A stretch of DNA of 64,000 bases from a plasmid: the sequence record NZ_CP110904.1. The stretch is one strand, 5' to 3'. The stretch's first letter is position 1. Each line of letters begins with the position of its first letter. A program made the position numbers and the translations under genes. Shown here in pieces: positions 214-59,983 of the stretch. The notes under the pieces are model-generated. The model had not been told where the DNA came from and searched no databases. It worked only from the letters and a program-made list of their open reading frames with translations.

Positions 214-224
214 AAAGTAACTTT
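214..224. repeat. AAAGTAACTTT palindromic repeat, copy a
   Basis: Exact 11-bp palindrome, extended on the right by TTTTCCCGG. Intergenic. Confidence 0.6.
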
Positions 225-330
225 TTTTCCCGGGGTAATAGTACGTGATCCGTCCGTTTTAATTTTTCGCTAAGGAGGCCAAATTTAACTTTAGTGTGAA
301 ATCGGGTACCAAAAAGCCGGAATTTATCGA

Positions 331-341
331 AAAGTTACTTT
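331..341. repeat. AAAGTTACTTT palindromic repeat, copy b
   Basis: Exact 11-bp palindrome within GAAAAGTTACTTTTCCG. Intergenic. Confidence 0.6.
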
Positions 342-447
342 TCCGTCTGCAAGAACCCACAATAATGCAGATCCGTCAGCATGAAAGGTGTGACATGCGC
401 TGAAGGGAAGATGAGTAAGAGGGGAACTGCGGCGTCACACGGCATCT

Positions 448-458
448 AAAGTTACTTT
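448..458. repeat. AAAGTTACTTT palindromic repeat, copy c
   Basis: Exact palindrome. Intergenic. Confidence 0.6.
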
Positions 459-1022
459 TCCAAAATATGGAATGGCAATCTATCTATCGCTATAAAGGAA
501 TAACCGGGATCACTGTCGAACATCTCAACGCGGGGCAGGTAGAATGAGGGAATTAAAATCGGGCCAGGCTAAATCTGCCCGACCATCGGGAAAGGATACG
601 GCGGCATGGGTCTTACACGAGATAATGCGAATGTATGGTCTTTTCCGGTTGCGACTGTTGGGTTTCTTTCTCACCTGTGGCTAACCGTCGGTATTCGGCG
701 TCACAAAACATCCGTAAGTTGGTAAAGACTTTCTCCATAAACTCAGCGTGAGCAAACGACTCACCCGGGGATTGTGTACGTTCTTTCATACATTCCTTTT
801 TAATCATGTCGACACCTTCGGCACAGGTTGCAGCGGGTACGTCAGCGGGTCACCAGCTGGCGCTGATAATTCGTGAATCCGGAATAGTATTCTACCCTGT
901 TCGCATGCCACATCTGGTCGATAAGCGGGGAATTTCAATCCTATATTGAACCCAGCGACCACCGCAGGGAGAAGGGGCACATGACTTGTTTGTCCGTCCG
1001 GTCTCGGCATAAGGAGCGAGCC

Positions 1023-2019: not shown

Positions 2020-2030
2020 AAAGTTACTTT
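2020..2030. repeat. AAAGTTACTTT palindromic repeat, copy d
   Basis: Sits in GAAAAGTTACTTTCCCGGTTGCC. Intergenic, 90 nt upstream of the 2120 ATG. Confidence 0.6.
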
Positions 2031-3077: not shown

Positions 3078-3440
3078 ATGAAAACGAAGATGAAACAGCC
3101 CAAATCTGCACTTCAGAATGCGATGAAGGGCGAAGAGCCTGCGAGCGTACAAATTCAGATGCGTGCCACTGTAACAAGAAAAGAACGCTATAAGGCGCAG
3201 GCAATTCAGGAGGATCTGAATTTAACCGAATGGATGGCGAATCATCTGGACGCCGTCTGTGACGCCGCCGAAGGAAAGGCATCCGTCAGCATCTTTTCCC
3301 CGGTTGTACCGGAGAAGATCCCAGACAGCGTCTACCAGGTCATCTATCAGGAATGCGGCGGGTTCGTGGACTGCGATGCGAATGCCCAGACGATCTGGAA
3401 TGCCTGCCGCCAGGCCATTCTGAAAAACGTGAAAGACTGA
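3078..3440 (+). CDS. small protein with an RHH-like core (QMRATVTRKERYKAQAIQEDLNLTEWMANHLD), paralog of 1684-1995
   Basis: The two proteins align over about 35 aa. A GTG alternative at 3066 overlaps the upstream stop. Confidence 0.5.
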   Translation: MKTKMKQPKSALQNAMKGEEPASVQIQMRATVTRKERYKAQAIQEDLNLTEWMANHLDAVCDAAEGKASVSIFSPVVPEKIPDSVYQVIYQECGGFVDCDANAQTIWNACRQAILKNVKD

Positions 3441-12792: not shown

Positions 12793-12802
12793 TGAGTAAA
12801 AG

Positions 12803-14581: not shown

Positions 14582-14962
14582 CTACTGCTGCTTCTGGAAC
14601 GCGACGAACGTCGCGAAAACAGCTATCAACACTGCCATGAAGTAAACCAGGTATGAGCCGGATTGCCAGATATTTACGCCGAAAAAAGAAAGTAACTTTC
14701 CGTCCGGGATAATAGAAAAAGCCAGGTTCCATAATCCGGTCAGTACAACCTGAGCGATAATCATTTTTCCCAGCGCACCCAGTTCCTGAGTTGCATACAT
14801 TGCAGCCATTACAAATGTCAGAACTACCACAAGGAGAGCAGACAAAGCCACAACCGAAATGCTCAGTCCGACGGACGTAAATATAATGGCTTCTTTAAAA
14901 GCCAGACCTGTAAACCCCCAGATCAGAATGACTAAAATGAAAAACAACAGGATAAATTTCAT
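14582..14962 (-). CDS. hypothetical polytopic membrane protein (126 aa)
   Basis: Four TM helices. Contains AAAGTAACTTT copy e. Confidence 0.5.
   Translation of the reverse strand: MKFILLFFILVILIWGFTGLAFKEAIIFTSVGLSISVVALSALLVVVLTFVMAAMYATQELGALGKMIIAQVVLTGLWNLAFSIIPDGKLLSFFGVNIWQSGSYLVYFMAVLIAVFATFVAFQKQQ
14689..14699. repeat. AAAGTAACTTT palindromic repeat, copy e (inside a gene)
   Basis: Exact palindrome. Confidence 0.5.
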
Positions 14963-15005: not shown

Positions 15006-16062
15006 GGCTTTGTTGAATAAATCAGATTTCGGGTAAGTCTCCCCCGTAGCGGGTTGTGTTTTCAGGCAATACGCACGCTTTCAGGCATACCTGCTTTCGT
15101 CATTTTGTTCAGCGCTCGTACCAGGGCCATAGCCTCCGCAACCTGACCATCGTAGTCACGCAGCGTCAGTGAACCCCCGAACAGCTGTTTTACCCGGTAC
15201 ATCGCCGTTTCCGCTATCGAGCGACGATTGTAATCTGTTGTCCATTTCCACCGCGCATTACTCCCGGTCATTCGCTGATTAGCCACTGCACGGTTACGGT
15301 CTGCATATTCACCGGGCCAGTAACCCGCACCTTTTCGGGGAGGGATAAGCGCGCTGATTTTCTTACGCCGCAGTTCATCGTGACATAGCCGGGTATCGTA
15401 AGCGCCATCGGCGGCGGCTGACCTGATTTTCCGGTGGGTTTGCCGGATTAACCCGGGGAAGGCCTCTGAGTCCGTAACGTTGTTCAGCGACAGGTCAGCG
15501 CAGATGATTTCATGTGTTTTACTGTCAACGGCGAGATGCAGCTTACGCCAGATACGGCGGCGTTCCTGGCCATGCTTTTTGACTTTCCACTCGCCTTCAC
15601 CGAAGACCTTCAGCCCGGTGGAATCAATTACCAGGTGTGCGATTTCACCCCGGGTGGGCGTTTTGAAACTGACATTAACCGACTTTGCCCGCCTGCTGAC
15701 ACAGCTGTAATCCGGGCAGCGTAGCGGAACGTTCATCAGAGAAAAAATGGAATCAATAAAGCCCTGCGCAGCCCGCAGGGTCAGCCTGAATACGCGTTTA
15801 ATGACCAGCACAGTCGTGATGGCAAGGTCAGAATAGCGCTGAGGTCTGCCTCGTGAAGAAGGTGTTGCTGACTCATACCAGGCCTGAATAGCTTCATCAT
15901 CCAGCCAGAAAGTTATGGAGCCACGGTTGATGAGGGCTTTATTGTAGGTGGGCCAGTTGGTGATTTTGAACTTTTGCTTTGCCACGGAACGGTCTGCGTT
16001 GTCGGGAAGATGCGTGATCTGATCCTTCAACTCAGCAAAAGTTCGATTTATTCAACAAAGCC
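15006..16062 (-). mobile_element. IS903-like element (IS5 family), 1057 bp, with a 9-bp target-site duplication GCTACGATG
   Basis: 18-bp inverted repeats GGCTTTGTTGAATAAATC. Direct repeats at 14997-15005 and 16063-16071. Confidence 0.9.
15062..16030 (-). CDS. IS903-type DDE transposase
   Basis: 322 aa with the IS5-family LHLAVD and ADGAYD motifs. Confidence 0.9.
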   Translation of the reverse strand: MKDQITHLPDNADRSVAKQKFKITNWPTYNKALINRGSITFWLDDEAIQAWYESATPSSRGRPQRYSDLAITTVLVIKRVFRLTLRAAQGFIDSIFSLMNVPLRCPDYSCVSRRAKSVNVSFKTPTRGEIAHLVIDSTGLKVFGEGEWKVKKHGQERRRIWRKLHLAVDSKTHEIICADLSLNNVTDSEAFPGLIRQTHRKIRSAAADGAYDTRLCHDELRRKKISALIPPRKGAGYWPGEYADRNRAVANQRMTGSNARWKWTTDYNRRSIAETAMYRVKQLFGGSLTLRDYDGQVAEAMALVRALNKMTKAGMPESVRIA

Positions 16063-16112
16063 GCTACGATGTCAAAGGCCAGCCTACCACTCGCAGAATG
16101 TATAACATGAGG

Positions 16113-19950: not shown

Positions 19951-19961
19951 AAAGTTACTTT
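19951..19961. repeat. AAAGTTACTTT palindromic repeat, copy f
   Basis: Intergenic. Confidence 0.6.
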
Positions 19962-20083: not shown

Positions 20084-22465
20084 TCACGCCAGCAGGCGGA
20101 CCAGACGATTCAGCAGAGGCCTTAACAGTGCCGCAGTACTCTCCCGGCAATCATCCACATGCCGGAATCCCGTCTTTTTCGAAGACTGGGGACCGGACAG
20201 CATCCTCAGCGCCCAAATAACCTCCCGTAAGGTTTCGTCGTACTCCTGGGAAATACACCTGGCTAACGTCGTCAGAAAGCGTTTTCTGACAGCCCGGTAA
20301 TACAACCGTTCCTCCGGTTGCATTGATTGAGGCTTAATCCGCAGGTTACAGAGAGTCAGTACAGCGTCGAGCAGACCGGCTTTCAGTTCGTCACCCGTCC
20401 GGGCCAGATGTTGCTGGCGTTCGTTCTCCAGTTGCGTCGTGATCCATGCCCCAAGAGGCGTTCGGTTGTGGGTGTGCAGCGCCACACAGGCCGCAACACA
20501 GCACCAGAAGCGCAGTTTCTGCCGCTGCCCCCGCAGTTTACGGGCAACGAGCAGGCGGTAATCGCAGTCGGTCAGGATCTTGAAACGGTGGCTGACGAGC
20601 AGGGACGGCAGCGGCGTCTGGTCGTTAATGCCAAGACGTGAAAAGGCCTGCCCGCGTTGAGCGAGGCGGTGGTACACCGCACCTTTCCCCCGGGAAATTC
20701 GGACGGCGCCGTATCTAAGCAGGTACTGTGCCGCCGCCACGGGGGTAAACTCACCGTCAGACACACGCTGGCGTAATCCGTCATATTCATGCCAGATAAT
20801 CCAGGACGCAGTGTCTTCATCGACCGTCAGCTCATCCTCTTCTTCGAATGCAACGATGTTCAGGCTTTCCCCGCTGCTCAGCAGGCTGCGGGAAGCACGG
20901 TCATCCTCCCGACCGTCAAAATAGGCCATTTCGGCAGACGGATCAGACAGCCCGTCAAATGACGTCCCGATACGGCCTTCCGGCAACTTCATCCAGCGTG
21001 GTGCTGGCATCGGCGTGCGGGGTACGGGTTGCATAGCTGGCTCATCGTCGAGCAGATCCAGTGCCCCCCCTTCCCACACCTGGCGGTAAAGTTCGATGGC
21101 GCGAAATGGTCGCGGGTTAAAGCAATGCAGTGACCAGAGAAAGTCGATATGCAGCACGTTGGCTTCCTGCACCAGTCGAAACTGCGGCTCCGCCATGCGG
21201 CGGTTATGCGCCGTATCTTCGACCTCGCCAGAAAGTAACTTTTCCCGCACCGCTGCGGCCCGCTGGGCCTCCACGTAATCGAGGCTGCAACAGATATGGA
21301 ACAGTCGTTCGGTCAGGGACGACGAGAAAACATTGGGCTGAAGACGCACATACCCGCCCTCAAACACTTTGCGGCCGATATAATCCCGAAGGCTCCAGTC
21401 GTACTGGATTTTGGTCAGGAAACGCTGAAGGCGGTTTAGACCAGCCTGGTAGCCGTACTTCTCAGGATCAGTGCGGAGTAAGGTTTCCATCGAGTGGTCA
21501 ATGCCGACGGCGCAGCATAGCGAGCATCCATAGCGAGCGCCGCAGGCAGAAGACCGGGCCGTGTATTTCTCCGGCGTCCAGATACATTCCCCGGTCGCGT
21601 CTTTGTAAAGCGTGGCGAGGCTGAAGTTGTCCGGCAAAAAGCTTGGCAGCGGAAATCGCGCCAGCGAACCACAGGCCATCAGAAATGACCAGATATCCTG
21701 TGTCCGCCACTCTTTCACCGGGTACAGTTCGCCGCCGAGCTCCGTGAGCGAGACGCTGTCCGACTGCCCGCCCATTCTGAGGATGTTGCCTGCCCGACGG
21801 GCGCTCTCATCATCGCGGGAACCCAGCATCAGGCACACTTTGTTGCGGACGGAAGCTGGTGCATTTTTTAAATAACGGGCTTTGGCCTGGCGCAGTGGAG
21901 AGCGTTTGAGATCTGTAGAGCATTGACGCGTATTGGAATTTGTCCAGGTCGGAAGTCCGCGTCCGGTCAGAATGCGTCCGACCCAGCTCTGGGTCATGGA
22001 CGGGTGGGCCACCAGGACGGTCACGGGCAGTTGCTGTTCGGCAATAAAGGCTCGGAGCTGGCTGAGAACCTGCGTGGACTGATGATGCATCTCAGGGTTT
22101 TCAATCTGGGTGTTGGAGATCTGAATGAAGTGGTGCTGGCTGACGTTCGACCCGTTCCGTACGGCACGGATCAGGGCCATGAGGAACAGGTGCAGTAGCG
22201 AGTGGGAGTCTTTCCCGCCGCTGTAGCCGACGCACATGGTCCAGCCTTCGGTAATCGCATGATAAATGGCACTGGTTGCCGTCGTCACGCGCGATGCGAG
22301 ACTGACCGGCTCACCGGCATCGGTATAATTCAGATCCGCATCGGTCTTCAGTGTTTGCCAGACATCGCCCCATTTATCCTGCGTCAGAATGGCAGCGTTA
22401 GCCGCCTCAGAAAATTGAATTTCTGAGGGTAATTCAAGGAATGTTTCTTTTATTTCGATATACAT
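20084..22465 (-). CDS. PAPS-reductase / DndC / IbrA-superfamily PP-loop ATP pyrophosphatase with a roughly 400-aa C-terminal extension (793 aa)
   Basis: PP-loop SGGKDS at residue 82 (CVGYSGGKDSHSLL) and a Cys cluster CGARYGCSLCC of the DndC/CysH iron-sulfur type. The C-terminal half has no recognisable family. Confidence 0.7.
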   Translation of the reverse strand: MYIEIKETFLELPSEIQFSEAANAAILTQDKWGDVWQTLKTDADLNYTDAGEPVSLASRVTTATSAIYHAITEGWTMCVGYSGGKDSHSLLHLFLMALIRAVRNGSNVSQHHFIQISNTQIENPEMHHQSTQVLSQLRAFIAEQQLPVTVLVAHPSMTQSWVGRILTGRGLPTWTNSNTRQCSTDLKRSPLRQAKARYLKNAPASVRNKVCLMLGSRDDESARRAGNILRMGGQSDSVSLTELGGELYPVKEWRTQDIWSFLMACGSLARFPLPSFLPDNFSLATLYKDATGECIWTPEKYTARSSACGARYGCSLCCAVGIDHSMETLLRTDPEKYGYQAGLNRLQRFLTKIQYDWSLRDYIGRKVFEGGYVRLQPNVFSSSLTERLFHICCSLDYVEAQRAAAVREKLLSGEVEDTAHNRRMAEPQFRLVQEANVLHIDFLWSLHCFNPRPFRAIELYRQVWEGGALDLLDDEPAMQPVPRTPMPAPRWMKLPEGRIGTSFDGLSDPSAEMAYFDGREDDRASRSLLSSGESLNIVAFEEEDELTVDEDTASWIIWHEYDGLRQRVSDGEFTPVAAAQYLLRYGAVRISRGKGAVYHRLAQRGQAFSRLGINDQTPLPSLLVSHRFKILTDCDYRLLVARKLRGQRQKLRFWCCVAACVALHTHNRTPLGAWITTQLENERQQHLARTGDELKAGLLDAVLTLCNLRIKPQSMQPEERLYYRAVRKRFLTTLARCISQEYDETLREVIWALRMLSGPQSSKKTGFRHVDDCRESTAALLRPLLNRLVRLLA
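21232..21242. repeat. AAAGTAACTTT palindromic repeat, copy g (inside the 793-aa gene)
   Basis: Exact palindrome followed by TTTTCCCGC. Confidence 0.5.
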
Positions 22466-31029: not shown

Positions 31030-31040
31030 AAAGTTACTTT
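31030..31040. repeat. AAAGTTACTTT palindromic repeat, copy h
   Basis: Sits in CAAAAGTTACTTTTCCCGGCTGCC, nearly identical to the extended form of copy d. Confidence 0.6.
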
Positions 31041-33916: not shown

Positions 33917-33927
33917 AAAGTTACTTT
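33917..33927. repeat. AAAGTTACTTT palindromic repeat, copy i
   Basis: Intergenic. Confidence 0.6.
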
Positions 33928-39961: not shown

Positions 39962-42382
39962 ATGAAATATCAGACTATAACTTTGGCTATGGTTTTGCTC
40001 GGCGTCTCAGTTCCGGTAACAGCTCAGATTTATGAATCCAGCTTTACAGATACCAATGGCATTGAAGTACACGCGCCTTCAACCCGGATGCTACTCAATC
40101 CGGCTTCTACCGTAACGCTGACGCTTATTTCTGGATTGGATCGCTTTGTAAACGTTAAAGTGACCCGGGAAACCGGGGCGCAGTTGTACAATACCACCAC
40201 TACCCGTACCGGTGTGGCTGATCGGCTAAAAGCAGCCGACAGCAGTGAATTTTACGGGAAGAAAGTAACTTTACCCGCTCTCGGGGAAGGAAAACTGATC
40301 GTCCAGGTCAACATTTTGGATCTGAATCAGTCAGTGGTAGCTACGTATAACTACAACTGGACAATAGACACCACACCTCCGGCTGCAAATGCCCTTACAG
40401 CAACCACATCACTGGGCACTGGAACTGGAGCGGTATTTAAATTAGGTCTTGAAGCTGTGGCGCAATACAGCTTTTTATCAACGGGCATCGCTGATGCGGT
40501 TGGAATAGATAAAGGCATATTTGAAATCTATCGCGCTAATGGAACCCTTTTCAGCTCAACGCCAATGAAATACAACGTCGGTGACAAGACGATGTACCTG
40601 CCCTACACCTTCGCAAGTGTGAAGCAACCGGGCATCCCTGATAGCAACCTTGACGAAGAATTTCAGGCAAAAGCCAAAATTTACGACACCGCCGGGAATA
40701 TCCGCACGTTACCGACCCAAAAATTTCGGTTTGATAATACAATTGGTGAGATATCCCTTTTCGCTGTTCATGATCCAAATGATGCAACCAGCGTCGTTCC
40801 CGGCGTGAAAAACTACCCGGCCTATAAAGCCGGTATGGTGGTTAACGAAAACCCTATCAGGCTGGTGTATAAAATCCCGAGATCTAACTACCGGGCATAT
40901 GCAGAGGGTGGACTGGAATTTATTAACCTTTATTCGGCTGCAAAAGAAATCGCTTCTGATGCCACCTACAGCTATGTCGAAATGACGCTGCCATTTGGTG
41001 CCTTCAATGGGGATATGGCTCGTATGGCCAACTTTGGACAGTGGGCAGGATACTTCCCGACCTACACGATGACGCTCAACCCGAACGCAAACAAGACGCC
41101 TGCTTTTACTGGCACCTGGGAGGATTTTCAGGATAGCAATGGCACCTGGTATAAGTCGAAGGACTTCGAGACAGTTCTGTCTTCCAGATTGCCGATTAAA
41201 ATCGTCCGGGCAAGATTTAATGTAGAAGCCAGACCGTTTGAGCAGGAAGTTGGGGGACGCCTAACCTGCCGCATTCCGGTTGGCCAGACAAGTTGCGAAG
41301 CTCCTGAGAATTTTGATATGGCGGTAGGGACTCAGGGTTATAACCGTACACTTTATTATGTACGCAGTGTCGCGAACCCTATTCTTCGTTCCGAGCAGTG
41401 GGTTATGACACGCTGGAACAATCAAATCGTCCCAGAAATTGGTGAGATCACCTACAGCCCGACATCTAAGATACTGACTGTTGAAGCTCATCTCAACAGA
41501 GATAATGATTGGTTCGACGGATTCAGACTCCTCGGATTCTATCTTACCGATAAGAACTCCAAACAGCGCATGACGCCTGTGGGAGTCGAAAAGTCCAGAA
41601 ACGCGGGTAACTACACGATTGAGTATGACCTTTCCCGGCAGTCTGAAGGGCAATACAACGTTGAAGTGAATATTCAGGATCGTTTCGGTAACCAGACAAA
41701 CAAAACCTATGGCGTGATAGCTCTCGATGCCACACCCCCAACGGTTGCTATTACCTTCGAAGGGAAGCCGGTAAAGGATGACACCGTCGTCTATGGTCTG
41801 GAAAATCTGCGCATTGCACTGAGCGATAACCTGACCACACCTCGCATTACTCGTCTCCAGCTAACTGGCGGACCGACATCAGACAATGTTGAACTCAGTT
41901 GGTCACCTGCTGGTAAAGACATATACTCGCCGGAATATCCGCGCATATTCCCGAATTTCGAGCCCTCTGAAAACTATGCTCTCAGTGTGACAGTGTCGGA
42001 CAGCCAGTCCAACACAAAAACTTACACACAGAAGTTCAGTTATCTCCCGAACAACTTGGTACAGCTGCATAACCTTCGAACCCTTGCAGTAAAGTCGGCG
42101 CTCAAAACCTCTGATAACGTGCCACTTGCCTATCTGTCTACAAACATGCTCCGCAAGACTAACGGTGAAATAGCCAAAGGCTTACAGAACGCGACCCTCT
42201 CAGTACGTAAGGATGCCAACTTCGGGATAGTGTTTAATGGAGCGGAGGCAGCTCCTGGGGAGTCTGTAAATGTTAATATCGACATGGGTATGGGTGATAA
42301 TCTTCTCATGCCGGTTTATCCATCAGAGAACGGCAAGACCGGAGCCGCTGAGTTTATGATCCAAATTGATGAGCTGAAGTAA
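39962..42382 (+). CDS. secreted Ig-like repeat protein, family member 1 (806 aa)
   Basis: Sec signal peptide (cleavage at about VTAQ-I), conserved N-terminal domain (ISGLDR motif), divergent beta-rich core, conserved C-terminal domain YLPNNLVQLHNLRTLAV...DELK. RBS AGGGGA. Confidence 0.7.
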   Translation: MKYQTITLAMVLLGVSVPVTAQIYESSFTDTNGIEVHAPSTRMLLNPASTVTLTLISGLDRFVNVKVTRETGAQLYNTTTTRTGVADRLKAADSSEFYGKKVTLPALGEGKLIVQVNILDLNQSVVATYNYNWTIDTTPPAANALTATTSLGTGTGAVFKLGLEAVAQYSFLSTGIADAVGIDKGIFEIYRANGTLFSSTPMKYNVGDKTMYLPYTFASVKQPGIPDSNLDEEFQAKAKIYDTAGNIRTLPTQKFRFDNTIGEISLFAVHDPNDATSVVPGVKNYPAYKAGMVVNENPIRLVYKIPRSNYRAYAEGGLEFINLYSAAKEIASDATYSYVEMTLPFGAFNGDMARMANFGQWAGYFPTYTMTLNPNANKTPAFTGTWEDFQDSNGTWYKSKDFETVLSSRLPIKIVRARFNVEARPFEQEVGGRLTCRIPVGQTSCEAPENFDMAVGTQGYNRTLYYVRSVANPILRSEQWVMTRWNNQIVPEIGEITYSPTSKILTVEAHLNRDNDWFDGFRLLGFYLTDKNSKQRMTPVGVEKSRNAGNYTIEYDLSRQSEGQYNVEVNIQDRFGNQTNKTYGVIALDATPPTVAITFEGKPVKDDTVVYGLENLRIALSDNLTTPRITRLQLTGGPTSDNVELSWSPAGKDIYSPEYPRIFPNFEPSENYALSVTVSDSQSNTKTYTQKFSYLPNNLVQLHNLRTLAVKSALKTSDNVPLAYLSTNMLRKTNGEIAKGLQNATLSVRKDANFGIVFNGAEAAPGESVNVNIDMGMGDNLLMPVYPSENGKTGAAEFMIQIDELK
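40262..40272. repeat. AAAGTAACTTT palindromic repeat, copy j (inside a gene)
   Basis: Exact palindrome. Confidence 0.45.
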
Positions 42383-42485: not shown

Positions 42486-42496
42486 AAAGTAACTTT
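42486..42496. repeat. AAAGTAACTTT palindromic repeat, copy k
   Basis: 200 bp upstream of the origin iterons. Confidence 0.6.
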
Positions 42497-43766: not shown

Positions 43767-44243
43767 TACCCGGAATAGTGGATATTCTTCTCCTTTCCGC
43801 TCTGTTTTTACCCGGTACAGTGGATCTCCACTACACCGGGTAATGTCAGCCCTAAAACTCCGATGCAGCCCTTTCTCTTCAGCCTTACCCTGACGATTCT
43901 GTGTGTTTTTCAACCAAAATGTGAACTATACCCGGTACAGTGGAGCCACGAAAATGTGATCCATACCCGGTATAGTGGATAAGGCCCCTTGCGAACCAGG
44001 CACCGGAAATGTGGCGGCACTGGTTGGCAAGTTTTACCCGGTATAGTGGAGCCCGTTACTGCCTCCGCCCCGGATGGCGTGATGTCACGGGAAGGAAGAT
44101 ATACCCGATAAAGTGGTTCGTGAAGGGTGAACGGCCCTGATAGCACGATGAGGCTGAAATGGAAACTGTACCCGGTATAGTGGAGCCACTAAGATTGCGT
44201 ACCCGGTGGCTGAGAGGGGAATCTTTTCCCGCCACAGTGGAGT
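43767..44243 (-). repeat. incA-like copy-control iteron array downstream of repA (about 9 copies of TACCCGGTATAGTGGAG, mostly opposite in orientation to the origin set)
   Basis: Spacing is irregular. Confidence 0.85.
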
Positions 44244-49270: not shown

Positions 49271-51727
49271 TTACTTCAGTTCCTCGATATTCAGCATAAA
49301 TTCTGACGTTCCGCTGACGCCGGAAATCGATGGGAAAATCGGGAAGCTGCGGCTGTCACCCAGACCCAGATCCAGCTGAACGTTTTTGCTCTCCCCTGGT
49401 GCTGCGGAAACCCCATTCACCGTAACGCCGAAGGCCGCATCCTTACGTACCGTCAGTATCGCGTCCTGTTTCCCTGTTGCGATAGAACCGTCCTTCTTGC
49501 GCAGCTGGCTGGCATACAGTACAGCCAGCGGCGTGTTGTCGGACGTTTTCAGGGCGGTACTGACGGAGATGGTCTTAAGGTTCTCCAGACGTACCAGGTT
49601 GTTCGGCAGGTAGTTAAATTCGACGGCGCTTTCTTTAACGTTGTTCATCTCGTCTTTGGCATACACGGTCAACGTGTAGGTTTCACCGTCATTAAGTGAC
49701 GGGAAGATCTTCGGGTAATTCGGTGTATAGAGATCATTTCCGAGATTTACCCAGGACAACTCAACAGCATCAGATACCGGTCCACCTCGAAGCGTCATGC
49801 GAGTTAACGAGGGTTTGGTCAGAGTATCTGCGAGCTGAATTCGGACGTTTTCCAAGCCGAACACTGTCACGTTGCTGGTGATAGGTTTGTTTTCGTAGTT
49901 GATACTGATGGACGGCGGCGAGTTATCGACCGTCACGGTTTTGTAGGCTAAGCTTCCCGTGTTGCTGAAAGAATCCTGGGCGTTGAGCTGCACGTTATAG
50001 CTGCCCTCCGGGATCTGTTTCAGGTTGAAGTCGTAAGTATAATTCCCGGTTGCTGTGTTACGCCCCGTTTGTTTTCCTGTCACGTTGATATCCGCGTTAT
50101 TGCGGGATTTGTCAGACAACCACACCCGGCTCAGTTTAACGGCATCGAAATACCATCCGTCTCCTGGCTCGTTGACGAATACCTGAAGAATGTTGGTCGC
50201 ATCATTGTAGTTGTAGCCAGTAACTGTGGGCCCCTTTGTATGCCAGGCGATGTTTTCCCAGAGCGGCATGAAGAAGGTGGACTCGGTTGTCGAACGCACT
50301 TCATAGGCAGTATGTATATAGCCGGTGGTACCGTTTGTAATCGCCTGTGTCAGGTCGACAGTACACGACGTTGACCCGGCAGGGATCTTGCAGGTGGCAC
50401 TGCCGGTAATTGCTTGTTCGTAGGGGCGTGCTTGCACAGTGAAACGGATCTTGGTTAGGTTCACCGGCATATCTGAAGCCAGAAAATTTTTCCAGTCGAC
50501 GCTATTGAACCAAGTGCCGTCAGACTTCTGTCGCTCAATCGCAGGACTCCCCCACGCAGGACTTTTTACCGCCGCCGGGTCCCAGTTCAGCCAGGAGGCG
50601 TACTGAGTCAGACCGCCACCGGCCCATTGGTACCTGTTCACAGGGCGATAGTAGTTTCCATCCAGAGTACCCTGTGGGAGCTTCACTTCTACGTACACAT
50701 AGGTCGTGTCTTCTGAAATAACCTTAGAGCCGCCATAATTGTTAAGAATGGTGATGCCGCCGTTACGGTATGGCTGCCAGTTAGTTCGGGGAATACGAAT
50801 GACCATCCGGTACGGGTTTTCGAGTACAGAGAGCCCCCGCACAAACGGTACGTACCCTGAAGAGATCCCTGGAACCACACTCGTACTGACTCGTGAGTCA
50901 TGGACCGCAAAGGGCGTATATTCACCTATCTGGTCATCAAATAAAAAGCGCTGCGGAGGAATATTCAGCGTGTTTCCGGCTTTATCCGTGATGATAAAAT
51001 TGAAGGTGAACTCTTCATTAAGATCGCTGGTGGGCATGCCAGGTTGAGTGACCGCACCCATGATCCAAGGGTAAAAGGCGCGTTTTGCCGCCGAGTCGTA
51101 ACTGAGTTTATTGTCGGATACGACTGCCCCATTACTGCGCTTGATGACCAGCCGGATCTTTTCTATACCATTTGCATCATCCACTCCATCAGCAAAGATA
51201 GAAAACTGTCCAGATCCTCCGCGCCCGAGCTCCCAGAGGGGACCACTCAGTACCATGTCATAGCCTGCGTCCTGGCTCGGGTAAATGCGGGTGTACTTCG
51301 GTGCCGTGGTATCGATGGTGAAATGATACGTAGAGGAACTGACGACGGCTTGCTGGAGATCCAGCGTATCGTTGACGATTGTAAAAGCCCCTTCCCCGAG
51401 AGCAGGTAACATCATGTCCTTACCGTAATACTCCGTGCCGTCTGCTGCCACTATGCGGTCGGCGACGCTTATCTTTGTCGTCAGTGCGGAATACATGACC
51501 TTTTTGTCACTGTCTCTGGTCACACTCACTCGTTCGTACCGGTCGAGGCCGGAGATTAGATTCAGGTTCAGTGTGCTTGCCGGATTGAGATAGCTCAGCG
51601 TGGAAGGCTTAAGCGTCTTTGCCAGCTGATTGGTGTCGGTATACGAATAGCTGAAAATCTGAGCCGCCGCCGGAAAAGCTGAAGCTATGGCCATACCAAT
51701 TATGCAGCCTGCCAGTGTTTTACGCAT
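49271..51727 (-). CDS. secreted Ig-like repeat protein, family member 2 (818 aa)
   Basis: Signal peptide and the same conserved N- and C-terminal domains. RBS GGGAG. Confidence 0.7.
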   Translation of the reverse strand: MRKTLAGCIIGMAIASAFPAAAQIFSYSYTDTNQLAKTLKPSTLSYLNPASTLNLNLISGLDRYERVSVTRDSDKKVMYSALTTKISVADRIVAADGTEYYGKDMMLPALGEGAFTIVNDTLDLQQAVVSSSTYHFTIDTTAPKYTRIYPSQDAGYDMVLSGPLWELGRGGSGQFSIFADGVDDANGIEKIRLVIKRSNGAVVSDNKLSYDSAAKRAFYPWIMGAVTQPGMPTSDLNEEFTFNFIITDKAGNTLNIPPQRFLFDDQIGEYTPFAVHDSRVSTSVVPGISSGYVPFVRGLSVLENPYRMVIRIPRTNWQPYRNGGITILNNYGGSKVISEDTTYVYVEVKLPQGTLDGNYYRPVNRYQWAGGGLTQYASWLNWDPAAVKSPAWGSPAIERQKSDGTWFNSVDWKNFLASDMPVNLTKIRFTVQARPYEQAITGSATCKIPAGSTSCTVDLTQAITNGTTGYIHTAYEVRSTTESTFFMPLWENIAWHTKGPTVTGYNYNDATNILQVFVNEPGDGWYFDAVKLSRVWLSDKSRNNADINVTGKQTGRNTATGNYTYDFNLKQIPEGSYNVQLNAQDSFSNTGSLAYKTVTVDNSPPSISINYENKPITSNVTVFGLENVRIQLADTLTKPSLTRMTLRGGPVSDAVELSWVNLGNDLYTPNYPKIFPSLNDGETYTLTVYAKDEMNNVKESAVEFNYLPNNLVRLENLKTISVSTALKTSDNTPLAVLYASQLRKKDGSIATGKQDAILTVRKDAAFGVTVNGVSAAPGESKNVQLDLGLGDSRSFPIFPSISGVSGTSEFMLNIEELK

Positions 51728-51903: not shown

Positions 51904-51914
51904 AAAGTAACTTT
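51904..51914. repeat. AAAGTAACTTT palindromic repeat, copy l
   Basis: In the intergenic region between family members 2 and 3. Confidence 0.6.
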
Positions 51915-52041: not shown

Positions 52042-54429
52042 TCAAAACTGCGGGAATTCAACGGCAAATTCAGATGTACCAGAAACGCCACTCTTTCCTG
52101 GTGTGACAGAATAAATACGTTCTTCACCCTGCCCCATATCAAAAATGATTGCCTTTGTCTCTCCTGGCTCAACGGTTACGCCAGCTACACTTACCGGGAA
52201 GTCAGCATCTTTCCGCACGGACAGCGTACCGTTTAACTGCCCGGTAATGACAGAACCATCTTTTCGGCGAAGTACGCTTGTCCGGATAAAAGCCAGTGGC
52301 TGGTTATCCGTGGTCTTTAGTGCAGCCGCAGTAGCAAGGGTACGTAGCCTGTCCAGAGTGATCATGTTTGCTGGTTGATAGAGGAAATTGAGCTTTTTCG
52401 AGGACCGGTTTCCAGAGGCATCGACTGCGTGAGCTTCAATTGTATAAATGCCATCCTCTTTTGCTATTACGGGAAAGATACGCGGGTACTCTGGCGTATA
52501 AACTCCTGAGCCCTGACTGGAATAAGCTAATGTCACCTGTTCACTGTTTGGTCCACCGCTCAACACCAGTGATTCAAGCGAGGCGTCACCTGAAGGGTCA
52601 GCTACACTAATTCTGAGGTTTTCTAGTCCCTTAATCAGTTTGCCTTCAGGATCATCATTCAGATACCGGTAGGATATTAGAGGGGCAGTGGAGTCAATGG
52701 TAAGCAAATCATTTATCACGTAGTTTGCCGTGTTGCCCACAAGATCTCTTGCATAGGCGGACAGAACGGTATATTTGCCGTCCGGCAGATCAGCATAGGA
52801 AATGACCGCGTTTTTTGTTTTAAAATCACTCTCTGTCCATGTCCTGGCGGGTAGGTCAATCACATTCCCCGTTTCGGTTTTAAGCACCACGCCAAATTCT
52901 CGGGTATCCCATGCTCCTATTTGCCATCCATTTATCCGGTCATCATCAGTAACCGTCATGGTTACATTTTTATCCATACGGTTAATTTTTACGGCGTTAA
53001 TAACCGGTGGGTTGTTATCCCAAATAACTACGAATGCCCCAGCCAGATTATCATAAATAGCTGTACCGTCTTTACCTGAGACCAGATGGATGTATTGCAT
53101 CCCCTTATCGGAAGTAAAGGTATAATCCACGTTCATGGTACAACCAGTGCTTCCTACCGGGATAAGGCAGTACCAGTTACGGTTCGAATTAGCTGCAACC
53201 CGTTGTACATAGTTACGAGGTTCGGTAGTCACGCGTATTTGGGTAAATTTGGCAGTTCTTACATTCCCAGTAGCACTGCTCCATTTACCGGTATCACTAC
53301 GAAAAATTTCTTTGCTTGTGACCTTTGGTGCAAGTTCCATGGTTGGGGAAGGAGTGAAAGATAACTCAGAGTGATGGTACCGACGAACGCCTCCCGCAAG
53401 TGTCTGGAATTCGTGATAAATATCACCGGTACTGGGGAAAACAAAATTGAACGAATAAATATTATATGTGCTGTCAGAACTTTGATAATTGGCATCTGCC
53501 CACCCAAAGCTTGTTTTATTAGCAGCAGTAAAGTTACTTTTATTCCTGAGTACCCGCAATGATATTGGATTACTGTAAACAGTTATCCCAGCTGAGTAGT
53601 TTTCCCAGGTATTTGTCCTGGTATTAAGCACCTGTAGAACAGAAGGAGGGTTGACCCGATCAATCACACTTTGTCTGCTTACTGATGCTTTATTTCCTGC
53701 CTTGTCATAAACATAAAGGCCCATACGGTATTCAGACTGAGAAGCTGGCGCCAGGGCTGGATCGCTCGCAGTAGTATTTTGGACGGTTACTGAATTATCG
53801 ACCAGGTTAATTACAGCCCCTCTCTTTCGTTCAACGCCGTTCGAATCGACAAGAAAGTACTCAGCCCGGTCGAGACCAGAGCGACTGTCTGAAAGGCCTG
53901 AAAAGACGAGAGCCTGAACAGAGGCATACTGCATACCTGAAGGAACGCTGGTAAAGATGGCTTCGCTACCATATTGCCATCCATTTCGCGTATATCCAAT
54001 TGTGCTAGTTTTAGGGGGAGTGCGGTCGATAGATATAACGTAGTCCCGGCGAGAAATTTCATTATTTTGGAGATCTGTGATCACTTCCCTCAGGGTGTAA
54101 TTATCTTCACCAAACGCAGGGACACTTAACCTTTTTCCATAATAGTCATACCCGCTACTGGAGGTCATACGGTCATCAACCGTAACTTTGCTACTTTTCG
54201 TGCTCCACAAGCTTGCACCGTTGACATTAAGTAACGACAACTGGACGTACCGGTCTAAGCCGGAGATTACATCAGCCTCGAATGAGGTTGCTGGATTAAT
54301 CCACTGCACAGATGGAACAACAATCTTTGGTTGATTCTGAGTGTCATTGAATCTTAACTCTGCAATCTCAGCTTGTGCCGTAAACGAAAAAGCTATGAGT
54401 GGTGCTAAAAGTATCGCCCTGCATTTCAT
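52042..54429 (-). CDS. secreted Ig-like repeat protein, family member 3 (about 795 aa)
   Basis: Starts MKCRAILL with RBS GGGGGAGG. The ORF track gives 54456. Confidence 0.7.
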   Translation of the reverse strand: MKCRAILLAPLIAFSFTAQAEIAELRFNDTQNQPKIVVPSVQWINPATSFEADVISGLDRYVQLSLLNVNGASLWSTKSSKVTVDDRMTSSSGYDYYGKRLSVPAFGEDNYTLREVITDLQNNEISRRDYVISIDRTPPKTSTIGYTRNGWQYGSEAIFTSVPSGMQYASVQALVFSGLSDSRSGLDRAEYFLVDSNGVERKRGAVINLVDNSVTVQNTTASDPALAPASQSEYRMGLYVYDKAGNKASVSRQSVIDRVNPPSVLQVLNTRTNTWENYSAGITVYSNPISLRVLRNKSNFTAANKTSFGWADANYQSSDSTYNIYSFNFVFPSTGDIYHEFQTLAGGVRRYHHSELSFTPSPTMELAPKVTSKEIFRSDTGKWSSATGNVRTAKFTQIRVTTEPRNYVQRVAANSNRNWYCLIPVGSTGCTMNVDYTFTSDKGMQYIHLVSGKDGTAIYDNLAGAFVVIWDNNPPVINAVKINRMDKNVTMTVTDDDRINGWQIGAWDTREFGVVLKTETGNVIDLPARTWTESDFKTKNAVISYADLPDGKYTVLSAYARDLVGNTANYVINDLLTIDSTAPLISYRYLNDDPEGKLIKGLENLRISVADPSGDASLESLVLSGGPNSEQVTLAYSSQGSGVYTPEYPRIFPVIAKEDGIYTIEAHAVDASGNRSSKKLNFLYQPANMITLDRLRTLATAAALKTTDNQPLAFIRTSVLRRKDGSVITGQLNGTLSVRKDADFPVSVAGVTVEPGETKAIIFDMGQGEERIYSVTPGKSGVSGTSEFAVEFPQF
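53530..53540. repeat. AAAGTTACTTT palindromic repeat, copy m (inside a gene)
   Basis: Exact palindrome. Confidence 0.45.
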
Positions 54430-56542: not shown

Positions 56543-56807
56543 AGTATCAGTCCTTTATGTAGGAATTATCTATTACCAGGATATCAACCTCGTTCAAAAA
56601 GCTAATAGGTTGGGCGACATAAAAATCTCGAAAGTTGCGCTGCGGGAGGTAGGACAGACAGATGTCGTTTTAATGAAGAGAAAGCGTGCCGGAGACAGGA
56701 CAAAAAAAAGCCCCTACTTAGTAGGGGCAATGGGCGAGAGCCTGGGTGGCTCGTTCTTGAATATCGTACTTCTAATTATGTGCTACTCATAAGTTGAAAT
56801 GCTTAAT

Positions 56808-57962
56808 TCAAGCCTGTGCTGGTGGTGCTTCAGATTGTGGTTCTCCGCCAGTATTTGTGTTTTTCGCGGATTTGTAAGTCACTTTCTCCCCTTTCAATCG
56901 AGCTTGCCGATTTTCGACCCGGCGAAGCTGCTTGTTTTCTGCTTCAGTGATCTCACTTTGCAGGTTCTTGAGCATCTCCAGCATGCTTCGGTTCAACGTA
57001 AAGGAAATTTCTTCATCTTCGCTGGAGTCGGTCACTTCGGGAAGTTGGATATCACCGAGTTTCTGCAACAAACTCGTAGTGATGAGTTTGACCCCTTCTA
57101 CGGCTTTTGTGGCGAGAACAGGTGGAACACGTGCCGGTTTAAAATCGGAAGGGACAACACGAATACTGCCACGTGGCGTCTTCTTAATCTTGATACCGCT
57201 TGAATCAGCTTTCTCAAGCTCGGCGATCATTTTTTCGATACGAGAGATGGCTTCCGTTTCACCGAACTCATCAATAAGGGATAGGACTGCAACATAGGAA
57301 ATAGCATCGGCATGGATTAATTTTTTGATGTAGACAGAGCATCCGGTCAGACGAATGAGAGCAGCAATGGTTGTACTACTCTTGCCCTCACGTTCGGCAA
57401 TACGATCAAGCGACCATCCGCCCAGCGCCTGAAGACGTCTGTAGGATTCACCCAGTGCCACTGGAGAAAGAGCCAGACCACGGTTCCCGTCAATTGTCGT
57501 CAGTTCGCAGCTGATCTCATCGGCTTTCATCTCGATGCAAAGAATGGTGAGGTCAGTATGTCCTTCTGCCTGAGCCATTAAAGCCGCTTTTAAACGGCAA
57601 TGGCCCTGGCGAACGTACGGAATACCGTCTTTGATCAGAACGCGTATAGGGTCAACGTAATCACCCCGGATGAATGCACACTTGATGTTATTGAGATGAT
57701 CTACGACTTCCGGCAGCTGGTAATATGCCTCCCCCATCCCCATCTCACGGGAGTTGAAGCCTGGCGAGATTTGAACCACTGAAGGGTTGATAGCCCAAGC
57801 TTTTTGTTCAGTGACTTCATTACAAAGGTCAGGGTTCGCGTCGCGGAACTGCTTCATGCCACTGACGAATCGGCCGGAACCTGTCACTGTTGAAAATGAC
57901 ACGAGGGGTGATTTAAAGACCCGTGAGTTAGTTTGCTGGGAATCAGTCATCAGATCACTCAT
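56808..57962 (-). CDS. ParB-like nuclease-domain (ParB/Srx) protein with HTH, 384 aa
   Basis: IRGDYVDPIRVLIKDGIPYVRQGHCRLKAA ParB N-terminal motif followed by an HTH. Confidence 0.7.
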   Translation of the reverse strand: MSDLMTDSQQTNSRVFKSPLVSFSTVTGSGRFVSGMKQFRDANPDLCNEVTEQKAWAINPSVVQISPGFNSREMGMGEAYYQLPEVVDHLNNIKCAFIRGDYVDPIRVLIKDGIPYVRQGHCRLKAALMAQAEGHTDLTILCIEMKADEISCELTTIDGNRGLALSPVALGESYRRLQALGGWSLDRIAEREGKSSTTIAALIRLTGCSVYIKKLIHADAISYVAVLSLIDEFGETEAISRIEKMIAELEKADSSGIKIKKTPRGSIRVVPSDFKPARVPPVLATKAVEGVKLITTSLLQKLGDIQLPEVTDSSEDEEISFTLNRSMLEMLKNLQSEITEAENKQLRRVENRQARLKGEKVTYKSAKNTNTGGEPQSEAPPAQA

Positions 57963-58301
57963 AGATACTCCGTTGTATTCTTTTTTGCCATACCTTTCAT
58001 CTGTGCGTGAATACTACCGGAAAAAAAAATCTCACTTTTTCGTTAAAAAGGTACTTTTGGGGTTTATTCCGAATTTCGCGAAGCAAAACGTTCTGATGCT
58101 CAGACCTAAAAGATTAAATAAACAATTAAAAACAAATGTTTATGCGAGCTAAGAAGGTAGTTAACTTTTTTGCCAAAAAGTGAAAAAAAATAAAAAAATG
58201 TGTCGGAATGAAAATTTCTTTCACAACACCCGCGATTTTCCCTGCTTAAACCTTGTTGGTTGTAATCCGGCTTTCGGTACCATAAGGGTGACATACCGAT
58301 A

Positions 58302-59147
58302 ATGCTTAAAGGAGAATACGCGTTGCGAAAACATACACCAATCATCAAATGGGCGGGGGGTAAAACCAAACTGATGCCATTCATCAGTCAGCATTTCCCA
58401 CATGATCAGAGCCGTCGGTGGGTCGAACCATTTATCGGCGGGGGCGCTGTGTTCCTTAACATGTTTGCCACCGATGCACTCTTGGCAGACAGTAATCCGG
58501 ATCTAATCAATCTGTACCGCAACATCCAGCGGAATAAATCGGCATTCATCAGAGAAGTGAATCTTCTGGCGGAAAGGGAATTTGATAAAGAGGATTACTT
58601 AAAGCTGAGGAACACGTTTAACAGCACCAGTTTGGATGATGCCCCGCTGCAACGAGCAGTCCTTTTCTACGCAATGAACCGACTCGGATATAACGGCCTG
58701 TGTCGTTACAATCTGAAACGTAAGTACTCAGTTCCGTGGGGGAATCGATCCAAGTTAACTCTGGACCCCCAGAAAGTCGATTATCTCTCATTCAGACTTT
58801 CTGGCGTTGAGCTGACAACCGCAGATTTTGGTCTGACGTTGGAGAGTGCTGGTGGTTGTGACCAAATTTATTGCGATCCGCCTTATGATAAAATCAGCAA
58901 AACCAGCTTTGTCAGTTATGACGGCATACCGTTCAATAAGAGCGCACATGTTAAACTGGCGGATATGCTGGTGGCAGCTCATCGTAAAGGGGCTTCAGTG
59001 GCCATATCCAACAGCTTGACTCCCTTTACGCTGGAGCTCTATGAAGAACGCGGTTTTGAAATTCATACTCTCAATGCTTACCGTTCTGTCGGCAGTCAAT
59101 CAAAATCGCGAAAAAAGGAAAAAGAGATCCTGGCTGTCCTTCGTTAA
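58302..59147 (+). CDS. Dam-family (alpha-class, DPPY) N6-adenine DNA methyltransferase
   Basis: IKWAGGKTKL, VEPFIGGGAVFLN, RLGYNGLCRYN and YCDPPYD are collinear with E. coli Dam. A possible TTG start at 58323 follows the AAGGAG RBS. Confidence 0.85.
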   Translation: MLKGEYALRKHTPIIKWAGGKTKLMPFISQHFPHDQSRRWVEPFIGGGAVFLNMFATDALLADSNPDLINLYRNIQRNKSAFIREVNLLAEREFDKEDYLKLRNTFNSTSLDDAPLQRAVLFYAMNRLGYNGLCRYNLKRKYSVPWGNRSKLTLDPQKVDYLSFRLSGVELTTADFGLTLESAGGCDQIYCDPPYDKISKTSFVSYDGIPFNKSAHVKLADMLVAAHRKGASVAISNSLTPFTLELYEERGFEIHTLNAYRSVGSQSKSRKKEKEILAVLR

Positions 59148-59161
59148 GTGACAGTCAGTGG

Positions 59162-59983
59162 TTAGTCGATCGGGCTTATCCATTCCTCAAAGCTCAAAAC
59201 TTCGGAATGGTCCCGACTGGCATAAGGAATAAACTGAAGCTCTTCGATGGACCGCTCCCCTCTCTTACCTTCACAAATAAACGATATAAGCCCCAGATCT
59301 GCAAGTTGGGTAAGAACATGCATGATTCGTACGTTCACCGTCTGCAACTGAAGAGCGTTAGCAATATCGGTAATTTTATGGGAATGGCGCCGAGACTTTC
59401 GCAAATATTCAAAAATGACAAGTTGGGTATTACGTCTCTTCAATAACTTCTCGGTCATAAATTCCTGAATTAACCCCCCAAGTAACACCAAGATCGGCCG
59501 CAGCACACCAGGGAACATCAAAGTATAAGACTGTGATGTTTTGATCAGTGTAAAGGACGTCAGAAAGCTAAAGTTCAGGCGCTTCTTTGAATACGGGATA
59601 TATACGGCCAATGTAGTCGACAAGTGAGTAAGTAATTCTTCCAGATGATCCAATGTGATCATTGCTGTTTTATCGGTATTACGCAGACCGTGATAATCAA
59701 TAAATGCCACTCTGGCACGACTCAGCCATTCATGTATGTTAATGGATACAGTGAACGGAGCATTTTCATCGACAACGTTGGCGGCATGATCAGCGAGCTG
59801 GTTGTGGATTAGCATAGACAGCTGGTAAAACGGAAACCGGCAGGATGGATGACACTGTAGTCCCGTTAGGGTAAGTTTTGTAGTACTCGAGCCATTTAGC
59901 GGAAAAGTAACTTTCCGGGATATAATTTTTGCTGACGCTCTTGCTGACTTGCAGATGAACCCAAGTCCAAGATCATTTTGCAT
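59162..59983 (-). CDS. 273-aa protein with a C-terminal winged-helix, convergent with the Dam-family methyltransferase; candidate restriction endonuclease or methylation-reader
   Basis: RBS GGAG. AT-rich codon usage like the methyltransferase gene. No nuclease motif could be confirmed by eye. Confidence 0.35.
   Translation of the reverse strand: MQNDLGLGFICKSARASAKIISRKVTFPLNGSSTTKLTLTGLQCHPSCRFPFYQLSMLIHNQLADHAANVVDENAPFTVSINIHEWLSRARVAFIDYHGLRNTDKTAMITLDHLEELLTHLSTTLAVYIPYSKKRLNFSFLTSFTLIKTSQSYTLMFPGVLRPILVLLGGLIQEFMTEKLLKRRNTQLVIFEYLRKSRRHSHKITDIANALQLQTVNVRIMHVLTQLADLGLISFICEGKRGERSIEELQFIPYASRDHSEVLSFEEWISPID
59904..59914. repeat. AAAGTAACTTT palindromic repeat, copy n (inside the 5-prime end of a gene)
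   Basis: Exact palindrome followed by CCGGGA. Confidence 0.45.

Follow-up and report, generated by a model that had tools for sequence, protein, structure and literature searches.

A dispersed odd-length DNA dyad under selection in the backbone of IncHI-type plasmids, with an orphan ParB-like protein as its candidate reader

Introduction

The backbone of IncHI-type plasmids carries a short DNA word, AAAGTTACTTT, dozens of times over. We studied it in a stretch of 64,000 nucleotides of plasmid DNA (sequence record NZ_CP110904.1; this whole stretch is referred to as the window), for which an initial annotation had listed 14 copies. In this study, we show that the 11-mer is a functional DNA element of the IncHI-type backbone and is under selection at the DNA level. 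The best reading of the set, on the sequence data, is that of dispersed binding sites for a plasmid protein of the ParB/KorB type, and DBP1, an orphan ParB-like protein encoded at the edge of the window, is the candidate reader.

IncHI1, IncHI2 and pNDM-MAR-type plasmids are associated with multidrug resistance in typhoid Salmonella, with mcr and NDM, and with virulence-resistance hybrids of Klebsiella. Control of the IncHI backbone is known to involve H-NS/Hha, HtdA and TrhR/TrhY, and understanding of it is only partial. An invariant 15-bp word, present in 42-71 copies and kept even inside coding sequences (CDS), points to a missing layer of control, to which the R0104/R0042 protein family of plasmid R27 offers a handle. 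The word is also a compact marker of IncHI-type backbone DNA and a possible target for curing by decoys or by CRISPR. Apparently the dyad has not been described before in IncHI plasmids; a literature search, whose coverage left out most subscription journals, returned no report of this word or of any dispersed IncHI motif.

Results

The word is an odd-length dyad

All 14 exact matches to AAAGTTACTTT on both strands were recovered at the coordinates first given for them (Table 1). Their number is far above chance: 100 dinucleotide-preserving shuffles of the window averaged 0.04 matches, and none exceeded 1. The description of the word as a perfect palindrome had to be corrected. Its reverse complement is AAAGTAACTTT, so it is not self-complementary and constitutes an odd-length dyad, AAAGT-W-ACTTT. 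The extension to ...TCCCGGYTGCC, which had been thought frequent, was likewise not borne out, CCCGGYTGCC being found at only two of the 14 copies (2020 and 31030). The true extension is symmetric and leads to the 15-bp consensus GAAAAGTWACTTTTC, as derived from all 42 copies of the parent plasmid described below. Among these, 30 have A at position -1 and 31 have T at position +11; G, A and C occur at position -2, whereas T does not, and C or T prevails at position +12. One-mismatch variants are scarce: the window has three, where 1.4 are expected, and the whole plasmid has 24. In five of these 24 the sole change is that of the central base to G or C. The supposed partial copy at 12798 reads AAAGTTACTgc and agrees with the word at 9 of 11 bases.

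According to the annotation of the record, nine copies in the window are intergenic and five lie within CDS, as had been reported. Since non-coding DNA makes up 25.5% of the window, nine intergenic copies among 14 are improbable by chance (P = 0.0025).

The word belongs to the conserved backbone

Large conjugative plasmids from Enterobacterales, among them Citrobacter, Klebsiella and Leclercia, match the window at 99.7-100% identity. The window is colinear with the Citrobacter freundii plasmid pCF_324-2 (CP078021.1; 258,843 bp; IncHI1B, MOBH, MPF_F) from position 196,045 onward and differs from it by scattered single-nucleotide polymorphisms and a 1.2-kb insertion at approximately 61.2-62.4 kb. 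Whole-plasmid counts refer to complete pCF_324-2, joined from six pieces. A scan of this plasmid gave 42 exact copies, and the word is its most over-represented 11-mer. The surroundings of the 42 copies all differ, and a hand count against the annotation places 22 of them within CDS. The over-represented words that rank second are the iterons of the other RepB replicon and a 54-bp array at the Par1 partition locus, and are not partners of the motif.

The copies are unevenly placed. Not one is found at 66.7-150.3 kb, an 84-kb segment holding resistance genes, integrons and transposons, for which uniform placement gives a probability of about 8e-8. The word can therefore be assigned to the conserved backbone. 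This backbone consists of the two transfer regions, the two rep genes and, occupying the window, a long block of genes on the same strand. Copies adjoin both rep genes, with one to four copies near rep genes. In the window, the copy at 42486, previously placed near the replication origin, is indeed separated by about 215 bp from the first of the RepB iteron-like repeats. These repeats, TACCCGGTAYAGTGGAG, occur in about 11 copies at 42700-42812 and 43764-44242, on both sides of repB, and the other RepB replicon has eight iterons of its own, GAAAAGCATTTGCATGAATGG (record 1575-2054). Two copies of the word occupy the intergenic region between mobI and trhR, in three lineages. At trhR one copy lies 76 bp upstream and one inside the gene, and another is found about 200 bp upstream of the operon on the mobI side. 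The neighbour of mobI in the IncA/C and SXT/R391 elements, which are related, is oriT. The tra promoter on the htdA side carries no copy in pCF_324-2.

The word is invariant across eight plasmid lineages

Searching a plasmid collection with DBP1 (tblastn) sorted its homologues into discrete identity classes, and one representative 41-kb locus was taken per class: about 91% identity in IncHI1-type Salmonella plasmids, 64% in IncHI2, 35% in pNDM-MAR-like Klebsiella plasmids and 32% in IncC. The word occurs 14 times in the IncHI1 locus and six times in the IncHI2 locus, being the top word in both, and ten times in the pNDM-MAR-like locus. On p_dm770b_NDM1 (251 kb), a complete plasmid of the pNDM-MAR-like type, we counted 71 copies, and the word is the top 11-mer there too. 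A protein search added four more lineages, one of them from Yersinia intermedia, with DBP1 homologues 44-57% identical and 5-7 copies per 21 kb, also as top word. The IncC locus of 41 kb around the DBP1 homologue holds none. Far from being absent from relatives, the word is thus the top 11-mer in eight IncHI-type lineages and invariant over all of them, at protein identities down to 35%.

Two further observations were made during these scans. An unrelated AT-rich genome, a Candidatus Babeliales metagenome-assembled genome (OY970310.1), contains nine copies of the 11-mer in 8 kb, probably a local repeat or chance. On the pNDM-MAR-like plasmid, a CRISPR-associated cluster (Cas6-like, helicase, Csf2) with a repeat array lies a few kb downstream of the DBP1 homologue (L009:24091-29008), and this array is the source of the remaining over-represented words there.

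Selection acts on the DNA itself

We masked the word at all 42 sites and, using translated alignments of the sequence on either side, projected its position onto the pNDM-MAR-like plasmid. A homologous flank was usable at 27 sites. Seven of these have a copy at the projected position, against about 0.6 expected by chance, and six of the seven match at the exact base. The sites kept comprise two within rsp, a single one in each of trhU, trhN, trhH and the gene for the cytosine methyltransferase (dcm), and the site proximal to DBP1. Intragenic copies encode the peptides K-V-T-(L/F) or K-L-L. Synonymous positions within the word are held fixed: depending on the frame, Lys is AAA or AAG, Val is GTA or GTT only, Thr is ACT, and Leu is TTA and then CTT. 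The flanking codons, in contrast, have drifted to 53-59% nucleotide identity (78% in dcm), and in the methyltransferase gene nearly all flanking synonymous sites differ while the protein is unchanged. The exchange of the central A/T is the only change tolerated inside the word. Frozen synonymous positions amid drifted flanks rule out peptide or codon bias and demonstrate a function at the DNA level. The other 20 of the 27 comparable sites have turned over, with total copy number still high, which suggests that copy number or density is selected as well as particular positions.

Some intragenic copies also code for the K-K-L-L-L with which an N-terminal signal peptide begins (record 30384, trhU; 151819, thermonuclease; 175826, trhH). 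This arrangement of site plus signal peptide is kept in the diverged relative.

Motif copies cluster upstream of the DBP1 gene

Copies of the word stand upstream of the gene for the DBP1 orthologue in eight of eight lineages, one to six of them at about 90-870 bp, over a range of 35-100% protein identity. They are positioned at -108, -225 and -342 in the lineage of the window, at -105 and -223 in IncHI1, at -101 and -227 in IncHI2, between -89 and -300 in four intermediate lineages, and at -121 to -870 (six copies) in the pNDM-MAR-like plasmid. This is the densest motif cluster of both complete plasmids, with three copies in 235 bp and six in 750 bp, respectively. In an alignment of four lineages, the DBP1-proximal site forms an invariant AAAAAAAGTWACTTTTT island amid diverged sequence. 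We also scanned genomes of all species for two copies of the word 111-141 bp apart. Chance pairs and regularly spaced repeat arrays of AT-rich genomes dominated; among the matches listed, wherever an enterobacterial contig held a ParB-like gene, the two sites stood immediately upstream of a DBP1 homologue, and the family was not extended among these matches.

The cluster of three copies within the first 460 bp of the window (214, 331 and 448), which had been pointed out before, has a spacing of exactly 117 bp. A tandem-repeat origin of this triplet was rejected, there being no tandem repeat at that place. The same spacing between motif copies recurs on the pNDM-MAR-like plasmid (record 102128/102245), and the DBP2 homologue of that plasmid has a copy at -117, the same figure. 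As 117 bp amount to about 11 helical turns, this could reflect phasing or coincidence.

DBP1 and its paralogues are orphan ParB-like proteins

The window encodes DBP1 in part and two paralogues, DBP2 and DBP3, in full (Table 1). The annotation shows no ParA gene adjacent to any of the three in the window or on the plasmid. The same plasmid also encodes a separate ParA/ParB pair, Par1, and a ParM/ParR pair. Together with the orphan 'ParB' of IncC, DBP1-3 constitute one family of 28-38% identity, which is distinct from Par1 ParB and from the KorB-type partition ParB of IncC. DBP3 has no separate orthologue on the pNDM-MAR-like plasmid and matches only the DBP2 and DBP1 homologues there. The 1.2-kb insertion that distinguishes the window from CP078021.1 (about 61200-62400) lies just downstream of DBP3 and holds two minus-strand open reading frames, 62031-62297 (88 aa) and 61210-62037 (275 aa), which resemble the orfA/orfB pair of an insertion sequence.

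The Pfam domain HTH_ParB (PF17762) scores 23.6 bits for DBP1, 25.9 for DBP2 and 21.4 for DBP3 at a cut-off of 22.6, and TIGR00180 matches DBP1. A profile of DBP1 orthologues searched against the PDB matches the DNA-binding domains of Caulobacter ParB and Bacillus Spo0J. The AlphaFold2 model of DBP1 is confident at residues 13-250. With this model, Foldseek retrieved CTP/CDP-bound ParB, KorB and Noc-NBS (probability 1.00, E-values 1e-6 to 1e-7) as well as Caulobacter ParB-parS, the best TM-score being that of the RK2 KorB-KorA-operator complex 8qa9. DBP1 is thus predicted to have a ParB fold. Among its orthologues the segment of the recognition helix, SEQH(L/I/V)R(Q/K), hardly varies, and H184 and R186 are invariant, which fits an invariant DNA target. 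DBP2 and DBP3 differ from DBP1 in this segment. Aligned with canonical KorB-type ParB, the DBP family has G(A/H)CRxRA in Box II in place of GERRxRA, retaining the glycine and the second arginine and replacing the glutamate and the first arginine; the glutamate and arginine of Box III (ENxQRExL) are also replaced.

DBP2 is a possible co-reader of the dyad. In the window a one-mismatch copy precedes its start by about 85 bp, and on the pNDM-MAR-like plasmid its homologue is preceded by exact copies, one at -117 and others farther upstream. Expression of R0042, which is the DBP2 homologue of R27, is high and is co-induced with that of the tra genes under every condition promoting conjugation, namely 25 degrees C, log phase and an htdA mutation (PMC7366339). 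This co-induction ties the DBP family to the transfer programme.

Table 1. Copies of the dyad and genes of the DBP family in the 64,000-nucleotide window
Feature	Window position	Strand	Location or product	Remarks
DBP1	5' end at 1..116	minus	401 aa; orphan ParB/KorB-family protein	record 194955-196160; R27 homologue R0104
motif copy	214..224		some 100 bp upstream of the start codon of DBP1 (window 116, minus)	exact match; proximal site
motif copy	331..341		DBP1 promoter region, second site, +117 bp	exact; kept in IncHI1B/IncHI1/IncHI2 alignment
motif copy	448..458		DBP1 promoter region, third site, +117 bp	exact; this lineage only
motif copy	2020..2030		intergenic, about 100 bp upstream of DUF5417 gene (2120-2452, plus)	exact
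motif copy	14689..14699		within hypothetical CDS (14582-14962, minus)	exact
motif copy	19951..19961		intergenic, about 50 bp upstream of gene 19408-19902 (minus)	exact
motif copy	21232..21242		within gene for PAPS-reductase-family protein (20084-22465, minus)	exact
motif copy	31030..31040		intergenic, about 195 bp upstream of gene 30459-30836 (minus)	exact
motif copy	33917..33927		divergent intergenic, about 140 bp upstream of gene 34059-34835 (plus)	exact
motif copy	40262..40272		300 bp into DUF4165 gene (39962-42382, plus)	exact
motif copy	42486..42496		intergenic, 355 bp upstream of repB (42841-43722)	exact
motif copy	51904..51914		intergenic, about 180 bp upstream of DUF4165 gene (49271-51727, minus)	exact
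motif copy	53530..53540		within gene for Ig-like repeat protein (52042-54429, minus)	exact
DBP2	56808..57962	minus	384 aa; orphan ParB-like paralogue	R27 homologue R0042
one-mismatch copy	58047..58057		about 85 bp upstream of DBP2 start codon	AAAGGTACTTT
motif copy	59904..59914		about 70 bp into hypothetical gene 59162-59983 (minus)	exact
DBP3	62388..63458	minus	357 aa; third orphan ParB-like paralogue	

Discussion

A DBP-family protein as candidate reader

The initial annotation had proposed an operator for a dimeric, plasmid-encoded global regulator or a partition or handcuffing protein, with ribbon-helix-helix (RHH) and ParB-like proteins as candidates. The general idea stands, the word being backbone-specific, present in eight lineages and under selection as DNA, and among the candidates the ParB-like proteins are favoured. 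The RHH-like proteins (1747-1995 and 3090-3440) drop out, as they have no homologue on the complete pNDM-MAR-like plasmid with its 71 copies. A partition role is disfavoured as well: the Par1 parAB promoter has no copy, Par1 possesses a tandem array of its own, and deletion derivatives of R27 are stable.

We put at about even the chance that the word, as core of the 15-bp dyad, is an operator or loading site of the DBP1 type, and we are evenly divided on whether the reader is a protein of the DBP family. A DBP1 dimer would dock on the dyad through its ParB-type helix-turn-helix, and the paralogues DBP2 and DBP3 may contribute to reading it. The one to six sites upstream of the DBP1 gene would serve autoregulation by repression of this gene. 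Through the 40-70 further sites, about one per 4 kb of backbone, DBP1 might repress or organise the whole backbone. Action at distal sites could be by direct occlusion of promoters or by complexes that nucleate, spread or slide, as KorB does from its operators in RK2. Three elements of this scheme are inferred: DBP1 as the binder, repression by binding, and any CTP-dependent clamp. If an orphan ParB-like protein is indeed the reader, IncHI plasmids have a plasmid-wide network of the ParB type as do RK2 and IncC plasmids, but uncoupled from partition. A more far-reaching idea, doubtful but conceivable, is that a ParB-like protein lacking both ParA and KorA, together with 40-70 sites selected by number or density irrespective of where each one lies, coats, silences or marks a whole plasmid of 200-300 kb. 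Such a system could shut down the backbone soon after entry or distinguish the plasmid's own DNA from foreign DNA. It would be an analogue of Noc-NBS and serve neither partition nor the control of promoters one by one, maybe working without CTP hydrolysis.

Several results weigh against a DBP1-type reader. The link between DBP1 and the dyad is purely one of position and co-occurrence, and all motif-bearing plasmids also keep DBP2, Par1 ParB and dozens of core proteins. Since the motif does not change within the family, specificity switching is of no use as a test of co-variation. Promoter and terminator scans revealed no overlap of the sites with promoter-like hexamers beyond that of shuffled sequences; the copy at 33917 falls in the spacer of a weak promoter-like match, which is itself not above chance. 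The replaced catalytic glutamates of Box II and Box III make clamp behaviour of the DBP proteins doubtful. In IncC plasmids it is the partition ParB, not the orphan DBP1 homologue, that the dispersed sites serve, and at the locus of this homologue (L010:19944-20882) no IncC site lies directly upstream. In R27, the 6-kb deletions Del7, covering R0104, and Del1, covering R0042, were obtained and the plasmids were fully stable (PMC4853401). DBP1 is thus not an essential repressor on its own. Finally, invariance of the word across very diverged plasmids equally fits a conserved host factor. In the same R27 series, deletion 18, of region 168,601-175,050 (R0199-R0205), was the only one of 19 attempted deletions that was never obtained (PMC4853401). 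It was considered as a clue to the ParB-like genes and rejected, as the region does not cover them and is unrelated to them.

Alternative readers

It is unlikely that the dyad is the operator of a core regulator outside the DBP family (TrhR/TrhY, HtdA or a small backbone protein), the DBP1 gene being merely one tightly controlled target. Dozens of core proteins co-occur with the motif in each lineage and DBP1 is not singled out among them; copies lie at and in trhR and upstream of the operon on the mobI side; and in IncC the gene next to a site and the protein that binds the sites are different members of the ParB family. As a lead, the GT-N-AC centre resembles a generic operator core of the GntR type. 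However, no other sequence-specific DNA-binding domain was found among the window proteins scanned, and on both complete plasmids the densest clusters are at orphan ParB-like genes. The sites moreover span the leading region, both rep genes and many non-tra genes, and with no copy at the htdA-side tra promoter they do not resemble a regulon specific to tra. A conserved host protein of Enterobacterales, nucleoid-associated or regulatory and recruited by the plasmid, is distinctly improbable. It would account for a word that is invariant while plasmid proteins are only 35-50% identical, and for the fact that plasmid-specific cis sites such as the Par1 arrays and IncC parS have diverged, as a host reader would not co-evolve with the plasmid. 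But 84 kb of accessory DNA in the same cell lack the word, as do 40 kb of the IncC backbone, which shares the same hosts, and we know of no enterobacterial factor with this consensus. A regulon of many sites can also freeze a specificity by itself, and the recognition helix of DBP1 is nearly invariant.

Very improbable is that the copies are dispersed parS sites of Par1 ParB (record 15530-16534). The precedent is IncC, in which 14 scattered palindromes are bound by the partition ParB (PMC10954446); Par1 ParB is present on both complete plasmids, and dispersed intragenic sites are typical of parS sets. Against this, the parA promoter region lacks a copy in either plasmid, whereas an IncC parS overlaps the -10 element of PparA. 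Par1 has arrays of its own, 9.5 x 54 bp just upstream of parA in pCF_324-2 (L003:13466-13978), and 25 x 66 bp upstream of parA (L012:10144-11783) with 2.4 further copies beyond parB (L012:15079-15234) in the pNDM-MAR-like plasmid. These arrays, probably the Par1 centromere or operator, are unrelated in sequence between the two plasmids and so co-vary with a ParB that is 49% identical, while the 11-mer is invariant. Par1 ParB is also a type-Ia (P1/F-like) protein (Pfam PF08775), and relatives of this type use operon-adjacent centromeres. That the word is no protein-binding site but a side effect of a mobile or repetitive element or of bias in peptides or codons (K-V-T-L or K-L-L), or else a restriction-modification target, is largely refuted, with next to no probability left, even though several intragenic copies encode K-K-L-L-L in signal peptides and the plasmid encodes several DNA methyltransferases. 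All 42 contexts differ, which leaves no longer repeat unit; half of the copies are intergenic; synonymous codons are frozen in the word and drift in its flanks; and 5-bp arms around one base make no useful hairpin. Restriction-modification targets are shorter and usually avoided, not enriched 300-fold.

Other classes of repeats were considered and rejected. Repetitive extragenic palindromes and miniature inverted-repeat transposable elements do not agree with contexts that all differ, 22 of 42 copies in CDS and arms of 5 bp. Iterons differ in sequence in both RepB replicons, and the motif is dispersed. Tus-Ter sites are few, asymmetric and about 23 bp long, whereas the dyad has a symmetric consensus, both states of the central base and 42-71 copies; GTAAC is its only resemblance to Ter.

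Comparison with known systems

Read as DBP-type sites, the dyads most invite comparison with KorB and its operator OB in RK2/RP4. The KorB operator, TTTAGCSGCTAAA, is an odd-length palindrome of 6+1+6 bases, the same geometry as that of the IncHI dyad. Both OB (13 bp) and the dyad are almost invariant, and both occur near promoters, far from them and inside genes, IncHI copies being 50-350 bp from gene starts, farther away or intragenic. KorB has the ParB fold and represses its own operon, as is proposed for DBP1. KorB, however, pairs with a ParA (IncC) and works with KorA and TrbA, whereas the DBP1 gene is monocistronic and has no ParA- or KorA-like neighbour. There are about 12 copies of OB as against 42-71 of the dyad, and the two sequences are unrelated. 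The DBP family lacks the Box II/III glutamates, and its role as reader of the dyad is that of a candidate.

The dispersed parS sites of IncC/IncA plasmids, described in 2024, number 14. Each is an inverted repeat of 22 bp whose core is TTTCACATGTGAAA, and four of the 14 lie within open reading frames (PMC10954446). In electrophoretic mobility shift assays they are bound by the KorB-domain partition ParB of parAB053; they act as centromeres, and one copy overlaps the -10 element of PparA (PMC10954446). Like the IncHI dyad they belong to the MOBH plasmids, of which IncC is a sister family, and have a fully conserved palindromic core with copies over the conserved backbone. The same k-mer approach recovered TTTCACATGTGAAA de novo as top word in IncC (p_dm330_NDM1, L010, 7 positions, 664-27443), which validates the method. 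The IncHI dyad differs in its odd length, its sequence and a copy number 3-5 times higher. The IncHI partition operon, moreover, is without the motif and has its own tandem array, and the sites cluster at orphan ParB-like genes that lack ParA.

Noc-NBS, MatP-matS and SlmA-SBS resemble the IncHI case in that tens of 12-14-bp palindromes, many of them intragenic, are spread over a replicon. Their reader is a dimeric protein that organises DNA instead of regulating single promoters, as the reader of the dyad may do. Noc is, like DBP1, a member of the ParB family without a ParA partner. These systems are chromosomal and tied to cell division or to the organisation of Ter, and no such link emerged for the IncHI dyad. 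HerB (YfjB) of F plasmids is, similar to the DBP proteins, an orphan ParB-like protein of an apparent leading region with a ParB N-terminal domain plus a helix-turn-helix (PMC13370423). It differs in its size of 71.5 kDa, its novel D4 dimerisation domain and its binding to the host chromosome, for which no motif was found (PMC13370423), whereas the IncHI case has a sharply defined motif on the plasmid itself.

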